Below are positions 38,493 to 46,123 of a DNA stretch of 64,000 nucleotides, one piece after another. Numbering within the stretch: the first letter of the stretch is position 1; every line of letters starts with the position of its first letter. A program made the position numbers and the translations under genes. Under the pieces are notes generated by a model, which ran no database searches, was not told where the DNA came from, and saw only the letters and a program-made list of their open reading frames with translations. This DNA is from Phycisphaerae bacterium (GTDB lineage Bacteria; Planctomycetota; Phycisphaerae; UBA1845): assembly GCA_963666835.2 (NCBI GenBank), contig CAXXGO010000006.1:1120001-1184000 (forward strand). The letters are read 5' to 3'.

Positions 38493-38843
38493 TTACGTCG
38501 AGAAACTCGAACCGCAGCCGCAGCCTCCCGCGGCGTTGGGGTTATCGAAGACGAACCGTTTTTGCATGGTCTCTTCCACGTAGTCGATTGTCGTCCCGTT
38601 GAGGTAGAGATGACTCTTCGGGTCGCAGATGACCTCGACGCCTCGCTCTTGCCAGCGCTCGTCGTTCTCCGCGACGCTGTCGGTCAGATCCATGCCATAG
38701 CTGAACCCGCCGCAACCGCCGCCTTTCACGCTGACCCGCAGGTACACCTCGGAACCCTCTTTGCGGCCATCCGGCTGTTGGGCACGCCCTTTCTCGATGA
38801 TACTGAGGACCTCTCGGGCCGCCGCTTCGGTTAGTTTGATCAT
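38493..38843 (-). CDS. iscA: A-type Fe-S carrier IscA
   Basis: LRVSVKGGGCGGFSY, F.FDNPNA..GCGCGSSF. Confidence 0.92.
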   Translation of the reverse strand: MIKLTEAAAREVLSIIEKGRAQQPDGRKEGSEVYLRVSVKGGGCGGFSYGMDLTDSVAENDERWQERGVEVICDPKSHLYLNGTTIDYVEETMQKRFVFDNPNAAGGCGCGSSFST

Positions 38844-38883
38844 CAGAGCCGCTCCTTATCAAACATGCCGTGACACTTCTGCG

Positions 38884-39285
38884 TCATGAGCCCGCCGGGT
38901 CCTTGCCGGTATGCTTTCGTCGGAAGTCAGTAATCGCTGCCCGAACCGCATCCTCGGCCAATACGCTGCAGTGGATCTTCACGGGCGGTAAAGCCAGTTC
39001 TTCGACGATCTCGGTGTTCTTGATATCAAGGGCCTCGTCCAGCGTCTTACCTTTAATCCACTGAGTTGCCAGCGAGCTGCTGGCGATTGCGCTTCCGCAG
39101 CCGAAGGTCTTGAACTTCGCGTCGGTAATGCGTTCGTTCTCATCCACCTGAATCTGCAGCCGTAATACGTCCCCACACTCCGGCGCGCCGACAATGCCGG
39201 TCCCCACGCTCGGCAGCGACTTATCCAGAGTTCCGACGTTCCGCGGGTTGTTGAAATGGTCTACGACCTTCTCGCTGTATGTCAT
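38884..39285 (-). CDS. iscU: Fe-S scaffold IscU
   Basis: YSEKVVDHF.NPRNVG, GAPECGD, FKTFGCGSAIASSS, LPPVKIHCS. Confidence 0.97.
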   Translation of the reverse strand: MTYSEKVVDHFNNPRNVGTLDKSLPSVGTGIVGAPECGDVLRLQIQVDENERITDAKFKTFGCGSAIASSSLATQWIKGKTLDEALDIKNTEIVEELALPPVKIHCSVLAEDAVRAAITDFRRKHTGKDPAGS

Positions 39286-39357
39286 CTCGGTGTCTCTCTA
39301 TCCCCGCCGGCATCCGGTACCGATCCTACTCCGGCAAGCGGCGCTGGGTACTTGTCT

Positions 39358-40569
39358 CTACGGGCTTCGCCACTCAATATCGGCCGGGTTGACTCCTTCC
39401 AACGCCATCTCGTACAGCGGGCTCATCTCCCGCAGACGTCTGACCGCCTTCACCGTTGCCGCAATCGTTCGGTCGATCTCTTCCTCCGTGGTGAATCGTC
39501 CCAGCGAGAACCTGATTGAAGTATGGGCAACGTCATCGCCCACCCCGATCCCGCGCAGAACATAGCTCGGCTCCAACGACGCGCTGGTGCAGGCACTTCC
39601 ACTACTTACCGCGATATCCTTCATGCCCAACATCAGGCTCTCTCCCTCCACGTAGAGGAAGCTGACATTGAGCGTTCCCGGCAGGCCGTGCTCCCGACTG
39701 CCGTTCATAGTGATGAAGTCCAATTTCCTCGAAAGGCCGTCCCAAAGCCGTTCCCGCAGGCTGCGCAGCCGTTCGCTCTCTGTGGTCAGCTCCGCCTTGG
39801 CGAGCTGCGCGGCGGCTCCGCACCCGACGATCCCCGGGACATTCAACGTGCCGCTCCGCATGCCACGCTCATGTCCGCCGCCGTAGATGATCGGCTGCAG
39901 GCGCACCCGCGGATTCTTCCGTCGAACATAAAGCGCCCCGACGCCTTTGGGCCCGTACATCTTGTGAGCCGAAATCGTCAACAGATCGACGCCCATTTCC
40001 CCAACATCTACCGGAATCTTCCCGACCGCCTGGGTCGCGTCCGAGTGGAAGAAGACGCCGCGATCCTTGCAGACCGCGCCGATCTCGTCCACCGGATTGA
40101 GCGTCCCGATCTCGTTGTTGGCGAACATCAACGACACCAGGATGGTGTCCGTGCGAATCGCCTCGGCAACCTGCGCGGCACTGACCCGACCGGTGCGGTC
40201 CGGCCGAAGCCACGTAACCTCAAAGCCCTCGGTTTCCAGGAACTTGCAGGGGTCCACCACCGCTTTGTGCTCAATCGGGGAAGTGATGATGTGCCGACCT
40301 TGCTCGACGTACATCCGGGCGACTCCCTGGAGAGCCGCGTTGTTTCCCTCCGTCGCTCCGCTGGTCCAGATGATCTCGTTCTCGTCGGCGCCGATCAGTT
40401 CGGCAACCTGGCGGCGCGCCCGGGTCACGGCGGCCTTGGCGGTTTCCCCGAAGCGGTGGTAGCGGCTGGCCGCATTCCCGAAGTCCTCCCTGAAATACGG
40501 GAGCATCGCGTCGAGCACGCGGGGGTCCACCGGCGTGGTTGCGTTGTTGTCGAGGTATACGAGGCTCAT
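39358..40569 (-). CDS. iscS: Cysteine desulfurase IscS
   Basis: [49 protein letters not shown] overlap with the iscR stop. Confidence 0.97.
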
Positions 40570-41063
40570 CCCGACAGCTCCTTCGTGCACCCTTGTCCGG
40601 CGATCTCGGGTACTCGATCCAGGCACTCCGGGGGCACCGTTTTCAGATCGTCCGCCAGCAGTTCTGCCAGAGTTACGCTCTCAAGAAACCGCTTGAAGTG
40701 CTCGTGGATTCGACTCGCCGGCGATCGGATCGGGCAGGCCAGTTCAAGGTCGCACGGCTCGGCGGCCGAGACGTCGCCCGACAGAACGCACCTCACGAAT
40801 TGCACCTCGCCCTCCATGGCCGTAATGACCTGGTCCAAAGTGACGGCCTCCGGCGGGTTCGCCAACTGGTAGCCGCCCGCAGCGCCCCGATGGCTCTGGA
40901 CAATCTCAGCCCGAGCGAGGTCCTTCAGGACGTTCGTGAGCAATGCCTGTGGAATGTGACATTCCTCGGCCACGGTGCGGGCACTGACGACCTCACCGGA
41001 GTTTCGGGCCAAATGCGTCAAGGCGATCAAGGCGTATCCGGTCTTTTTGTTCAGGGCGAACAT
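40566..41063 (-). CDS. iscR: Rrf2-family regulator IscR-like
   Basis: w[15 protein letters not shown]; three Cys (C-X11-C-X5-C) plus a downstream His; first gene of the isc operon. Confidence 0.8.
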
Positions 41064-41116
41064 TATCAATTTCCACTGTGCGATCCTGGCTCATTGAGCC
41101 ATTATCATCGAGCTGC

Positions 41117-42441: not shown

Positions 42442-43581
42442 TTGTTTGCCATGGAGGTTGACGCCGTGACAGGAGAGCAGTTTGTTGCCGAGCATGTCAA
42501 ACCAATTGGTTCATCGGGGATCCGGAGGGTCTTCGATCTGGGCGCGACGCTGAAGGACCCGATCAACCTCTCGATTGGTCAGCCGGATTTTCCGGTGCCC
42601 GAGGCCGTGAAGGACGCCATGGTCGAGGCGATCCGGACCGATCACAACGGCTACACCGTTACCCGGGGAATCGCTCCACTTAGGGATCGGATCGCCCGGC
42701 AGCTCAAGGAGGAGTTCTCGTGGGAACCTGACCTGTTCGTGACCTCGGGGCTTTCGGGAGGCCTGTTTCTGGCCCTGATGACCTGTCTGAACCCCGGCGA
42801 CGAGGTCCTGATCGGCGATCCGTACTTCGTGTCTTACCCGCACTTGGTTCGGCTCACGGCCGGCGTGCCCGTGTTCGTCGACCTCTACGACGACTTCCAA
42901 CTTCACCCGGAGCGGTTCGAAGCGGCGATCACCGCCAAGACCAAGATGATAATCGTGTGCTCGCCCGGAAACCCGACGGGGACGGTGCATCGCGAGGACG
43001 ATGTGCGGGCCCTTGCGGAGATCGCCCGCAAGCACGACCTGCTCATTGTGAGCGACGAGATTTATTCCATTCTGTCGTACGATTGCCCCAGCCCCAGCCC
43101 GGTGGAGTTTGCTCCGGAACGGACGCTGCTGCTGCGCGGGTTCGGCAAGTCCCACGCTATGACGGGGCTGCGGATGGGCTATGCGGCCGGCCCACCGAAC
43201 GTCATTTCCGAGATGGCGAAACTGCAGCAGTATACCTACGTTTGCGCGCCGCACGCTGCGCAATACGGCGCTCTTACCGCCATGGACACGGACATGTCAG
43301 ATCAGGTGGACACGTACCGCGCTAAGCGCGATCTGGTATGCGCGGAATTGGAGGGGGTCTTCGAGGCCGTGAGGCCTTCCGGGGGGTTCTACGTGTTCCC
43401 GAAGTGCCCGGCGAACTTCTCTTCCGCCACCCCGTTCGTCGAGCAGGCGATCAAGAACAACGTGCTCATCATTCCCGGTGAGGTGTTCAGCGCGCGCGAT
43501 ACGCATTTCCGTATCAGCTACGCGGCCCCGGACGACAAGATCCGCGAGGGCTGCGGAATCCTCCGAGGGTTGGTTGGTTAG
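42442..43581 (+). CDS. PLP-dependent class I/II aminotransferase
   Basis: INLSIGQPDF, SPGNPTG, SDEIY, GFGKSHAMTGLRMGY. Start may be the GTG near 42466. Confidence 0.92.
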   Translation: MFAMEVDAVTGEQFVAEHVKPIGSSGIRRVFDLGATLKDPINLSIGQPDFPVPEAVKDAMVEAIRTDHNGYTVTRGIAPLRDRIARQLKEEFSWEPDLFVTSGLSGGLFLALMTCLNPGDEVLIGDPYFVSYPHLVRLTAGVPVFVDLYDDFQLHPERFEAAITAKTKMIIVCSPGNPTGTVHREDDVRALAEIARKHDLLIVSDEIYSILSYDCPSPSPVEFAPERTLLLRGFGKSHAMTGLRMGYAAGPPNVISEMAKLQQYTYVCAPHAAQYGALTAMDTDMSDQVDTYRAKRDLVCAELEGVFEAVRPSGGFYVFPKCPANFSSATPFVEQAIKNNVLIIPGEVFSARDTHFRISYAAPDDKIREGCGILRGLVG

Positions 43582-43691
43582 CCGGCGTTATCCATTTGGG
43601 TGTATTCGAGGGGGCTCTGCGCGTTGGTCCAACACCAGAACTCGCCCCCAGCTTTGGTGAGGACTGCGGCTGGCCGAGGCGCAATGCGCAC

Positions 43692-43731
43692 AAAACCCCC
43701 ATCCCGAGGCTTCGCAAGCGACGGGAGGGGG
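43692..43731 (-). terminator. Terminator of the small hydrophobic ORF
   Basis: Minus strand CCCCCTCCCG...CGGGATGGGGG followed by TTTT. Confidence 0.65.
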
Positions 43732-43762
43732 ACTCCGCTCCTCTTTTCGCCTGGATGCTGAG

Positions 43763-43861
43763 CTAGGCTGCCGTCGTACTACCGAACAGCATGCTGATCA
43801 GCAAGTTCAACAGAATCGGCAGAAGGCTAGAAAGTAGAGTGCTAATTAAGCTGCTGGCCAT
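43763..43861 (-). CDS. Unannotated 32-aa hydrophobic peptide MASSLISTLLSSLLPILLNLLISMLFGSTTAA
   Basis: SD TGGAGGT upstream of ATG, downstream terminator, uncharged Leu/Ser/Ile-rich sequence. Below the ORF track size cutoff. Confidence 0.65.
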   Translation of the reverse strand: MASSLISTLLSSLLPILLNLLISMLFGSTTAA

Positions 43862-43987
43862 GTTCCCGACTACCTCCATTCAGAAGAAAACTTTCGCGGC
43901 GCCGTGGAGCTACTCTCCGGGCGGGGCTGCGGGCCAGGGTGAGCCCTTTCGCACAGTGCGGGGAACCCCGGCAGCGTCCAGCGCACG

Positions 43988-44010
43988 AAAATACCCGCCG
44001 AAGCGGGCAT
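43988..44010 (-). terminator. 5S rRNA terminator (UUCG-capped hairpin)
   Basis: Minus strand ATGCCCGC-TTCG-GCGGGTAT-TTT. Confidence 0.65.
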
Positions 44011-44026
44011 TCTCAAGAGAAAACAA

Positions 44027-44131
44027 TGCGGCAATAACCTACTCTCGCCTTGCGACTACCATCGGCCGTACAGGCTTAACTACCGTGTGCGGAATGGGAA
44101 CGGGTGTATCCCTGCACGTATTGTCACCGCA
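44027..44131 (-). rRNA. rrf: 5S rRNA (stand-alone, ~105 nt)
   Basis: TGCGGTGACAATA...CACCCGTTCCCATTCCGCACACGGTAGTTAAG...GCCGATGGTAGT...GAGAGTAGGTTATTGCCGCA; the 5' and 3' ends pair. Confidence 0.93.
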
Positions 44132-44137
44132 CCGCGG

Positions 44138-44165
44138 ATAATAGCGAACCCGCCCGTTACGTCAA
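44138..44165 (-). promoter_or_regulatory. sigma70 promoter directly upstream of 5S
   Basis: TTGACG-16-TATTAT with the -10 box ending 6 nt before the 5S 5' end. Confidence 0.7.
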
Positions 44166-44207: not shown

Positions 44208-45242
44208 CTAGTCCTGCGCCTCGAGCGTCGCGATGTCGGCCAGCATGAACTCCACCGGCTGAACTGGCTCTGCCAGCTCGATTCGGAGTGGTAGATGCAG
44301 TTCGGGGGTCCAGGATTTGAGGACGCCCAGCTCCTCCAGATCAGCCGCTTTGAGCTGGATCACCCCGTAGGCACGCGACTCGCCATGCAACAGACGAGCG
44401 ATGTCCTCCGTCGGCCCGGCCACCGTAATCGTCTGCGTTACCAGCGTCATCAAAGAACCGTCCCGGGCCACCGCGTAATAGGACTTTCCCAGGTTTGCGA
44501 AACTCACGGCCAGCTTAATGGGCACGGTGGGGATCTTCTCCACGCTTCGATCTGCCTGCATCGTGGCTGTCACGTCAACGCGGGCGGGGTCGAGCCGCGC
44601 TCCTTGGCCAAAGGGCTGGTTGTCCAGCGTGACCGCCACCGTCGCCGGCTGCCCCGGAGGCTTGGCTTTGACCAGCCGCTCGACCTCCGCGGAGATGTCG
44701 ATTCTGGTTTGCTGGTCGGGCAGCGGGAGGTTGTTGAAAACGCTCTCGCGCATGCGCACCGTCGTCGACGATTGTGCAACTTCCGGCTCTTCATCGTAAG
44801 CCAGGGTGAGGCGTTGGGTCGTTATCGCCAGTTCGCGCGTGATCATGTGATCCACGACAATCGGCAGGGCGGAGGGCTGGACCGACACGATGGTCAGCCG
44901 GCCGAATTCGTGCCGTTGGTCCGTCAGGGCACGCTTGATGGTCTCGCGATCGAGGGTGAGAGTCGCTGGGCCAGTCGGGCGATCTGCGATGCGGAGGTGT
45001 AGCTCCAGAGGTTCACGCTTCTGCAGGTCGTCGACCACCCGCCTCGGGCCGGTTACCTGCACGTCGACAAGGCGGGCTTGGACTATCGGGTCGATGTCCA
45101 CCAGCATGTCACGGTTCGCCAGAGATTCTACGGTGAATGAGACGCGGATGGACACGGCCTCGTTCACCAGGCTGTCTGCGCTCGCCCAGACCAGCGCGGT
45201 TAGGATCACGGTCATGGTCAGGAGTTTGGCCTGCTCGATCAT
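44208..45242 (-). CDS. CdaR/YbbR-like membrane-anchored protein
   Basis: N-terminal TM (TVILTALVWASAD); VQVTGP and ITVAGP repeats; ATGA overlap with cdaA. Confidence 0.7.
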   Translation of the reverse strand: MIEQAKLLTMTVILTALVWASADSLVNEAVSIRVSFTVESLANRDMLVDIDPIVQARLVDVQVTGPRRVVDDLQKREPLELHLRIADRPTGPATLTLDRETIKRALTDQRHEFGRLTIVSVQPSALPIVVDHMITRELAITTQRLTLAYDEEPEVAQSSTTVRMRESVFNNLPLPDQQTRIDISAEVERLVKAKPPGQPATVAVTLDNQPFGQGARLDPARVDVTATMQADRSVEKIPTVPIKLAVSFANLGKSYYAVARDGSLMTLVTQTITVAGPTEDIARLLHGESRAYGVIQLKAADLEELGVLKSWTPELHLPLRIELAEPVQPVEFMLADIATLEAQD

Positions 45243-46123
45243 GAGCGTTGCCCTCCGTCGCTGCCGCCCGATGATGCCGGTTTGGCGGCTGCCGGCTTCT
45301 CCGATCTGACGGTCAGTTCCTTGATGAGCAGATCGCGCAGAGATTCCGGGCTGAGGGATCGGCGGAGACGACCACGACTCGCGACGGAGATGGTCCCCGT
45401 CTCTTCGCTCACTACGATTACGACGGCGTCCGCCTCCTGGCTCATGCCCAGTGCGGCCCGGTGGCGGCTACCCAAGGAGCGGTCCACTTCCCCGGACTCT
45501 ACCAGCGGGAACTGGCAACCGGCTGCGACAATACGCCCCTGGTGGATAATCACGCCCAGGTCGTGGAGTGCCGTGCCCGGCCAGAAGATTGTCTCAAGCA
45601 GCTCGCGCGAGACGGCCGCGTCGAGGATGACTCCGGATTCGGTTAATGCTCCGACTTCGCCCATCCGTTCCATAGCGATCAACGCACCGATCTTCTTCTT
45701 CGATAGGCGTTCCGCGGCGTCGACTACCGGGTCCACGACTTGAGTGGATGCCTTGGCCCAGTACTGTAACCAGCCTCCGGTGCCGATTCGCAGAAGGAAC
45801 CGGCGTAGCTCGGTTTGGAACGCTACCAACGAGACCAGGAAAACACCGAGAATGAAATACGGATAGAGAACCTTGATGCGCTCGGAATCCAGGTTCTCCG
45901 CAATGAGCCAGACCACGGCGAAGCTCACTGCGAGAATCGTCAGAACCGCCCGGACCAGCCGCGCCCCACGCGTTCCCTGAAAAGACCGCAGGATCGCATA
46001 CACGACGATCCCGATCAGGAAGAACTCGATCAGCGCAACCCACGGGCGCTCGGCCACCCGCTCGTACAGCGAGTGTATTCCCGGAAGAAGATCTATCTGC
46101 AGCAGAGTCGTCACCGTCTCCAA
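45239..46123 (-). CDS. cdaA: Diadenylate cyclase CdaA (DisA_N)
   Basis: Three N-terminal TMs, FQTELRRFL, GALIA.ER, IFWPGTALHDLGV, LGSRHRAALG, VVSEETG. Confidence 0.9.
   Translation of the reverse strand: METVTTLLQIDLLPGIHSLYERVAERPWVALIEFFLIGIVVYAILRSFQGTRGARLVRAVLTILAVSFAVVWLIAENLDSERIKVLYPYFILGVFLVSLVAFQTELRRFLLRIGTGGWLQYWAKASTQVVDPVVDAAERLSKKKIGALIAMERMGEVGALTESGVILDAAVSRELLETIFWPGTALHDLGVIIHQGRIVAAGCQFPLVESGEVDRSLGSRHRAALGMSQEADAVVIVVSEETGTISVASRGRLRRSLSPESLRDLLIKELTVRSEKPAAAKPASSGGSDGGQRS

Follow-up and report, generated by a model that had tools for sequence, protein, structure and literature searches.

The 64,000-nt stretch of Phycisphaerae DNA analysed here, which we refer to as the window, contains on its minus strand an orphan 5S rRNA gene behind the genes for a DacA diadenylate cyclase and a YbbR-like protein, followed by a short ORF that faces an aminotransferase gene (Table 1). 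The initial annotation had read a gene of 32 codons from this strand, and the TGGAGGT Shine-Dalgarno (SD) motif, the ATG at 43861, the TAG ending at 43763 and the translation are all exactly as it gave them. Its further observations also held, as the 5S rRNA gene lies 164 nt upstream, the GC content is 0.495 in the ORF compared to 0.628 and 0.618 in the flanking genes, and predicted folds contain a GC-rich hairpin with TTTTG 3′ of the stop codon. This hairpin, of which a simple terminator scan flagged just the sub-stem 43709-43697, is likely the intrinsic terminator of the peptide mRNA, judged from the folding model. The focal peptide contains no Asp, Glu, Lys or Arg residue and has a GRAVY value of 1.57. 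An in-frame ATG six codons upstream (43879) was rejected as the start because it overlaps the SD motif and is not conserved. Contigs of two studies contain the focal stretch with no differences, one of the runs possibly being the same source as the window; hence, the stretch is not an assembly error. No RNA data set was listed for the stretch, which says nothing about expression. Elsewhere in the window (38493-41069, minus strand), the translations reveal what we take to be an isc-type cluster encoding an Rrf2-like regulator, IscS, IscU, IscA and an HscB-like protein.

Table 1. Features of the peptide locus (window positions) and mini-lipoprotein-like ORFs of the same genome (contig:positions, strand in brackets)
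Feature	Position	Strand	Basis or remark
32-aa micro-peptide gene, family A	43763..43861	-	leaderless, K/R-free amphipathic helix 2-26 (predicted), Pro15, Gly/Ser/Thr/Ala tail
Shine-Dalgarno TGGAGGT	43872..43878	-	10 nt before ATG 43861
GC-rich hairpin + TTTTG 3′ of stop	~43690..43740	-	predicted by folding; faces convergent aminotransferase
5S terminator hairpin, also sigma70-like TTGAGA-N17-TATTTT	43985..44016	-	scan; ~120 nt before peptide ATG
Orphan 5S rRNA (RF00001)	44026..44131	-	sole Rfam match in window; conserved upstream landmark
Sigma70-like promoter of 5S gene, TTGACG-N16-TATTAT	44138..44165	-	promoter scan
YbbR-like protein	44208-45242	-	PF07949, below cut-off; context only
DAC-domain diadenylate cyclase (DacA)	45239-46123	-	PF02457; context only
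Class I/II aminotransferase, convergent	42442..43581	+	PF00155; context only
Mini-lipoprotein-like ORFs L236-L241, first three	C6:53025-53219(-), C6:1503941-1504105(+), C6:1247302-1247469(+)		focal genome (G000)
Mini-lipoprotein-like ORFs L236-L241, last three	C1:1126132-1126278(-), C3:488090-488254(-), C6:1876044-1876205(-)		focal genome (G000)

The exact focal peptide is absent among 15 billion called proteins, and of four homologues sought in the same collection three were absent and one was present without a name. A profile of the peptide family, hereafter family A, scored the focal ORF with 49.6 bits, whereas none of the remaining 149,875 segments from the six-frame translation of this genome exceeded 8.4 bits, and no true paralogue of family A was found in this genome. 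This score, far above the rest of the genome, together with the conservation of the ORF makes it more than chance. Judged by sequence comparison, the focal ORF is a real gene which gene callers miss.

A search with the single peptide matched 29 of 60 genomes of the same taxonomic family (E ≤ 10), and a 32-row profile matched 64 of 100 (E ≤ 0.1). From the 78 records extracted, seven from other families and one spurious 10-bit row were dropped, leaving 70 members from 64 genomes with lengths of 26–36 aa; the copy in G005 runs off its contig. An SD-like motif precedes 63 of the 70 members compared to a background of 11%, and no conserved upstream extension of the frame was found, the frames 5′ of the start being unconserved. 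Conservation and dN/dS had been set beforehand as the check on the gene, and relatives indeed keep both ORF and SD, with a pooled dN/dS of 0.21 over the 12 closest disjoint pairs, a value which the choice of pairs with low pN biases downwards. Codon-position identity over all pairs amounts to 0.39/0.70/0.33, and in a 13-row DNA alignment the leader has diverged and the Ts at second positions are fixed. The low complexity of the sequence may favor a chance ORF or a non-coding conserved element, but the dN/dS value, the codon-position pattern, the conserved start, stop and SD and a frame that holds while the leader diverges speak against it. This reading is refuted by selection and conservation in 70 members, and the chance that we still assign to it is next to nil. 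In the rest of the order, weak matches only were obtained, in 8 of 158 genomes, and a sample of the class gave weak matches in 5 of 377 non-family genomes. Family A is, on this comparative evidence, conserved, under purifying selection and restricted to one family of uncultured planctomycetes. In another family of the order, a leaderless, A-like peptide of 33 aa with a strong SD was observed (G175, L119:1473-1574(+), 21.7 bits).

Across the family, dacA-ybbR is repeatedly followed by a solitary 5S gene that has a promoter and a terminator of its own, as at 44026-44165. The peptide gene lies 94–743 nt (median 158) downstream of a 5S gene in 49 of the 70 members, and the remaining 21 were not seen in this slot and have unrelated neighbours, although the contig of one is too short for a decision. 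At all 23 loci at which both genes were measured, the aminotransferase gene is convergent to the peptide gene, with 18–42 nt between stop codon and convergent gene in six of them. Among the 36 family genomes without a profile match, 26 yielded a 5S gene, one copy each, and no peptide-type ORF was found behind it, although three of these contigs end within 300 nt; dacA and ybbR are still present at slots without the peptide. When 56 genomes were arranged on a YbbR tree, one clade (support 100/99) carried the peptide gene in the slot in 34 of its 40 members, and the slot was not filled in any of the 16 genomes outside it, which indicates that the peptide gene is old and has been kept vertically with some losses. 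With 36 of 100 family genomes yielding no match, it is also dispensable. The YbbR-like protein as locus query retrieved no loci. Tandem copies occur in a few genomes, three in G040 and two in G058, those of G040 being diverged and following the 5S gene (L012, G040:C1 ~2367460-2368150). At L043 (G058) and L047 (G046), where family A is relocated, the 5S slot holds other hydrophobic ORFs of 27–31 aa with SDs (two in G046), which do not score against the family A profile.

Two layers of expression signals were considered, initiation of translation and initiation of transcription. The predicted energy for opening the initiation region has a median of 9.5 kcal/mol in 69 members compared to 11.4 kcal/mol in 150 of 483 ordinary genes (p=3e-4), values for which 5′ ends were assumed and to which AT-richness contributes, as AT-richer ORFs fold less anyway. 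The focal copy is not open, its 13.0 kcal/mol falling inside the interquartile range of the control genes. A promoter-like score of at least 8 was found in the 5S terminator at 32 of 45 filled slots versus 4 of 28 empty slots, a contrast confounded by phylogenetic kinship and by the symmetry of the stem. Since kinship and stem symmetry could give the same contrast, we see roughly even odds between a promoter embedded in the 5S terminator and read-through from the 5S promoter. Ten relocated copies carry a box of the TATGAT/TACAAT type ~100–116 nt upstream, and the word GGCGCGG recurs ~70–100 nt upstream in 28 genomes; we know of no promoter type that it fits. The promoter scan of the window gave no antisense promoter at the focal locus, and the 5S gene was the only Rfam match.

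AlphaFold predicts a single helix comprising residues 2–26 (pLDDT 86, pTM 0.41). The alignment columns follow a pattern of three repeats of two hydrophobic and two polar positions (hh-pp), Pro15, hhh-Gln19, hhh-Ser/Gly, hh-Gly-Gly and a Thr/Ala tail, in which columns 5, 6, 9, 10, 13, 14, 17, 18, 21, 22 and 25 are occupied to 96–100% by L, I, V, F, M or W. Pro15 is present in 56 and Gln19 in 46 of the 70 members, and no residue is invariant. Given these hydrophobic columns and the lack of an invariant residue, contacts to lipid or to the peptide itself are a better fit than a dedicated site for a ligand. The periodicity of the profile peaks at 92°, with 37 of 70 sequences individually beating their shuffles, and small polar residues form an i,i+4 stripe (S3-S7-S11-P15-N/Q19-S23-G27); small-xxx-small zippers drive the packing of helices in membranes, according to an excerpt of PMC7495484. 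The initial annotation had stressed that no residue is charged, which is true for the focal peptide but not for the family, as just 29 of 70 members are uncharged and the shared trait is the lack of Lys and Arg. The 2275 residues of the 70 members, mostly Leu/Ile/Phe and Ser/Gly/Thr, include 52 D/E and 3 K/R, and owing to the latter count the family is non-cationic and devoid of tryptic sites. On an approximate insertion scale, the focal peptide scores 0.75 and the family median is 1.1, compared to 0.67 for the designed peptide (LSSLLSL)3. The focal peptide is strongly amphipathic and marginally hydrophobic and not a plain transmembrane anchor; the predicted helix would probably reside in or on the cell envelope.

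Database searches placed neither the focal peptide nor the related mini-lipoproteins described below in a named family. Matches in Pfam and NCBIfam were scattered over one or two of 32 members each and gave no meaningful family, no PHROG family matched more than one of the 70 members, and a plasmid search with family A yielded no match. Nothing was obtained by PDB sequence search and Foldseek, which says little for a single helix. In the ESM Atlas, the peptide retrieved a single cluster without a name (0.80, which is weak on the tool's own scale) and a mini-lipoprotein retrieved unnamed clusters of Planctomycetota (0.89). The sole match among 1.84 billion representatives, a 335-aa repeat protein, was judged spurious. 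Pfam gave no match for the scanned mini-lipoproteins, and a 54-aa mini-lipoprotein returned itself only in a word search of 5.8 billion sequences; the OmpA-like protein P0009, listed in the cluster of this mini-lipoprotein, has no visible similarity to it and was set aside. A description of these peptides was not found among the literature matches listed, although members lacking an assigned function may be included in subscription journals or in supplementary material, for instance smORF catalogues. Searching a genomics paper on the whole class Phycisphaerae (PMC11266412) by term gave no hit for lipoproteins, small proteins or peptides.

Six weak matches of family A in other families turned out to be the C-terminal halves of ORFs of 50–70 aa with a basic start, a hydrophobic stretch and the motif GGxLLQxxG-C. 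The focal genome encodes six such mini-lipoprotein-like ORFs of 49–64 aa, each with a short amphipathic mature helix, as well as both Lgt and LspA. A profile of these ORFs gave 565 matches, distributed over 185 of the 200 genomes searched in the order, and none of 300 genomes from the rest of the Planctomycetota matched. We parsed 76 mini-lipoproteins from the best-scoring matches and the seeds, with three more left unparsed, and the mature part comprises at most 45 aa in 75 of the 76 (median 31 aa). SD and start are present in 68 of 75, dN/dS is 0.14 over 10 pairs, Gln occupies position −4 of the signal motif in 63 of 75, and the mature parts are poor in K/R (15 of 2286 residues). These proteins are putatively lipidated.

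The mature parts are of the same size as the family A peptides and resemble them; family A is, on the above insertion scale, more hydrophobic (median 1.1 versus 5.6 kcal/mol). With the family A profile, 9 of 75 mature parts reached at least 15 bits compared to 0.1 for pattern-preserving shuffles; five of these nine had first been found via family A and four had not. Conversely, a profile built from 65 mature parts found without family A scored 43 of 70 family A peptides with at least 10 bits versus 17.6 in pattern-preserving shuffles. Much of the score survives such shuffling (mean 8.1 versus 11.3 for the real sequences). The profile-profile probability is 44%, and low-complexity amphipathic helices are known to converge. 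Homology of family A to the mature part of the mini-lipoproteins is likely, with moderate support.

Further leaderless families accompany family A. A second one, A′, is likewise amphipathic and K/R-poor, comprises ~40 aa and carries a conserved LDIDGFLTSTEF motif at its start; it is represented in the focal genome by a 40-aa peptide (C1:744565-744687(+), L235:2066-2185). Of 100 family genomes, 70 have a single match to A′ (E ≤ 0.5), including many in which the focal peptide is missing, and the similarity of A′ to family A has a probability of 19%. Among 25 extracted members, 24 possess an SD, and K/R account for 4 of 1009 residues. A third, Trp-rich and K/R-poor family of 23–28 aa matched 15 of 100 family genomes (E ≤ 0.5), and in the focal genome two hydrophobic 26-aa peptides rich in Trp are encoded in tandem, each with a strong SD and a Thr tail (L242, C6:158243-158323 and 158482-158562(+)); ORFs resembling them occur in about a dozen relatives. 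Additional hydrophobic, K/R-poor ORFs of 26–29 aa with clear SDs were seen at C6:1586738-1586953(+), C1:744141-744227(+), C3:241976-242065(+) and C1:1433618-1433704(+), one pair of them in tandem. A C-terminal tail of small residues is common to family A and other leaderless families.

We compared family A to characterized systems. Phenol-soluble modulins (PSMs; PSMα/β, δ-toxin, LspU) are, like family A, leaderless amphipathic helices of 20–45 aa, and PSMβ peptides have about the size of the 40-aa A′ family. However, none of 32 members matched a PSM or δ-toxin family in Pfam or NCBIfam, the polar face consists of Ser/Thr/Gly/Gln in family A and of charged residues in PSMs, the repeat of family A is four residues, and its host is a diderm planctomycete, unlike the staphylococcal hosts of PSMs. 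PSMs are exported by a dedicated ABC transporter of the Pmt/AbcA type; among the genomic neighbours of family A, no ABC exporter recurs. Excerpts of PMC12607899 describe PSMs arising from small ORFs missed by annotation. With the entericidin A/B lipoproteins (PF08085; Atu8019), the mini-lipoproteins share a precursor of ~50–60 aa, a lipidation Cys and a mature part of ~30 aa, and Atu8019, as far as the available text of PMC7296081 describes it, is a non-lytic 53-aa lipoprotein with a 32-aa mature part that is active in vesicle docking. In contrast, the signal GGxLLQxxG-C is unusual compared to entericidin, the focal peptide has neither signal nor Cys, and PF08085 gave no match in the focal genome while the E. 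coli control was detected. On the features tested, family A belongs neither to the PSMs nor to the entericidins nor to the type I toxins discussed below.

The reading that we favor, at a probability of roughly 45%, is by analogy that of an envelope peptide which self-associates and is structural or surface-active in function, similar to PSMs or entericidin B without belonging to either. Of the possibilities raised by the initial annotation, it is the undescribed small membrane protein that agrees with a conserved peptide under purifying selection, with a predicted single helix and no named family. In this reading, the gene is a stand-alone housekeeping micro-protein gene with its own SD and predicted terminator, whose mRNA would either start at the candidate promoter embedded in the 5S terminator or arise when transcription of the 5S gene reads through, and would be translated efficiently. 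The peptide would probably keep its N-terminal (formyl)Met, partition into the envelope and self-associate via the i,i+4 stripe of small polar residues. In the manner of PSMs and entericidin-B-like lipopeptides, it would thereby serve a structural or surface-active function; its place in the cell, its oligomeric state and its role are inferences. The lack of a recurring co-localised exporter among the neighbours of family A, the dispensability of the gene and the initiation region of the focal copy, which is not open, count against the envelope reading. As to origin, the peptide may be derived from or convergent with the mini-lipoproteins, most likely as a signal-less offshoot in which hydrophobicity would replace the lipid anchor.

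A minimal physiological ion or proton channel, in which inner-membrane helices oligomerise with the Ser/Thr/Gln stripe lining the pore, appears unlikely to us, even though a 25-residue helix is long enough to span the bilayer, its Pro kink has a parallel in alamethicin and the small-xxx-small packing mentioned above would suit it. The focal peptide resembles the designed peptides (LSSLLSL)3 and (LSLLLSL)3 in being an uncharged, amphipathic Leu/Ser sequence of membrane length with a similar insertion score, and (LSSLLSL)3, to which the Leu/Ile/Phe and Ser/Gly/Thr composition also points, forms cation channels of ~8 Å according to an excerpt of PMC6824673. These designs are synthetic and heptad-based, whereas family A has a repeat of four residues, not seven, a central Pro and a Gly/Thr tail; moreover, a pore that is strongly translated and not repressed would dissipate the proton gradient, no translational lock was seen, and the lipoprotein look-alikes are too polar for membrane spanning. 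Many bacterial membrane peptides of 30 aa are accessory subunits or regulators, and the focal peptide might similarly serve a membrane complex such as the DacA/YbbR c-di-AMP module or a lineage-specific transporter. Its mostly single-copy occurrence, the conservation of Pro15 and Gln19 and the old linkage to dacA-ybbR-5S fit such a role, which we nevertheless consider rather improbable, as an invariant residue is lacking, 21 of 70 copies are off the slot and, between dacA-ybbR and the peptide gene, there lies a 5S gene equipped with a promoter and a terminator of its own. Coupling to DacA/YbbR in particular is weakened by the slots without the peptide, at which dacA and ybbR persist.

Less still speaks for the two other suggestions of the initial annotation. 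Type I toxins (TisB, Ibs, ShoB, DinQ, Fst/Ldr, AapA1) are, as in family A, single helices of ~30 aa encoded in intergenic regions with their own terminator, and a toxin with an undetected antisense RNA would fit the size, hydrophobicity and patchy presence of the peptide, the tandem copies in a few genomes and the leaders of ~100 nt. The cationic tail of type I toxins is usual but not universal, given that IbsC, ShoB and DinQ also lack a basic C-terminus (excerpt of PMC8309996). Nevertheless, we regard a toxin as clearly improbable, because at the family level the RBS is not sequestered but predicted to be more open than in ordinary genes, basic residues are as good as absent and no cationic tail exists, and inheritance is vertical and mostly single-copy in a housekeeping slot. 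In addition, the short distance to the convergent gene at six of 23 loci, the poorly conserved leader and the lack of a match to a toxin family, a plasmid or a recurrent PHROG family argue against it. The other suggestion, a precursor of a modified peptide (a RiPP, cyclised, or glycosylated on the Thr/Ser tail) with enzymes encoded elsewhere, would account for the small-residue tail that recurs in family A and other leaderless families. However, the peptide has no division into leader and core, and no modifying enzyme or exporter recurs beside the gene, leaving a precursor highly improbable.

Beyond the envelope peptide favored here, a wider picture can be drawn, which we consider unlikely to hold in full: the order's envelope may be partly built of hidden K/R-free micro-helices, comprising several leaderless families and, in each genome, about six mini-lipoproteins anchored by lipid, whose signal is non-canonical and contains Gln. 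Through right-handed zippers of small residues, these helices would assemble with one another into a layer that shapes the membrane, a filament or a natural Leu/Ser channel, and the focal member would be coupled to rRNA synthesis by a 5S terminator that also serves as its promoter. What is new is a conserved, unannotated gene family and, with it, a larger blind spot of lineage-specific lipidated and leaderless micro-peptides, of which the leaderless ones escape gene callers and, without tryptic sites, cannot be seen by trypsin proteomics. The focal peptide comes close, as a natural sequence with 70 variants, to the classic designed Leu/Ser channels, and at 32 aa its synthesis and testing are feasible although the host is apparently known only from assembled genomes. 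If the link between family A and the mini-lipoproteins is true, it would provide a clean natural case of a lipoprotein that lost its signal and lipid anchor and gained hydrophobicity. The focal gene is probably not a toxin gene but an entry point to an unnamed, order-wide repertoire of micro-lipopeptides.
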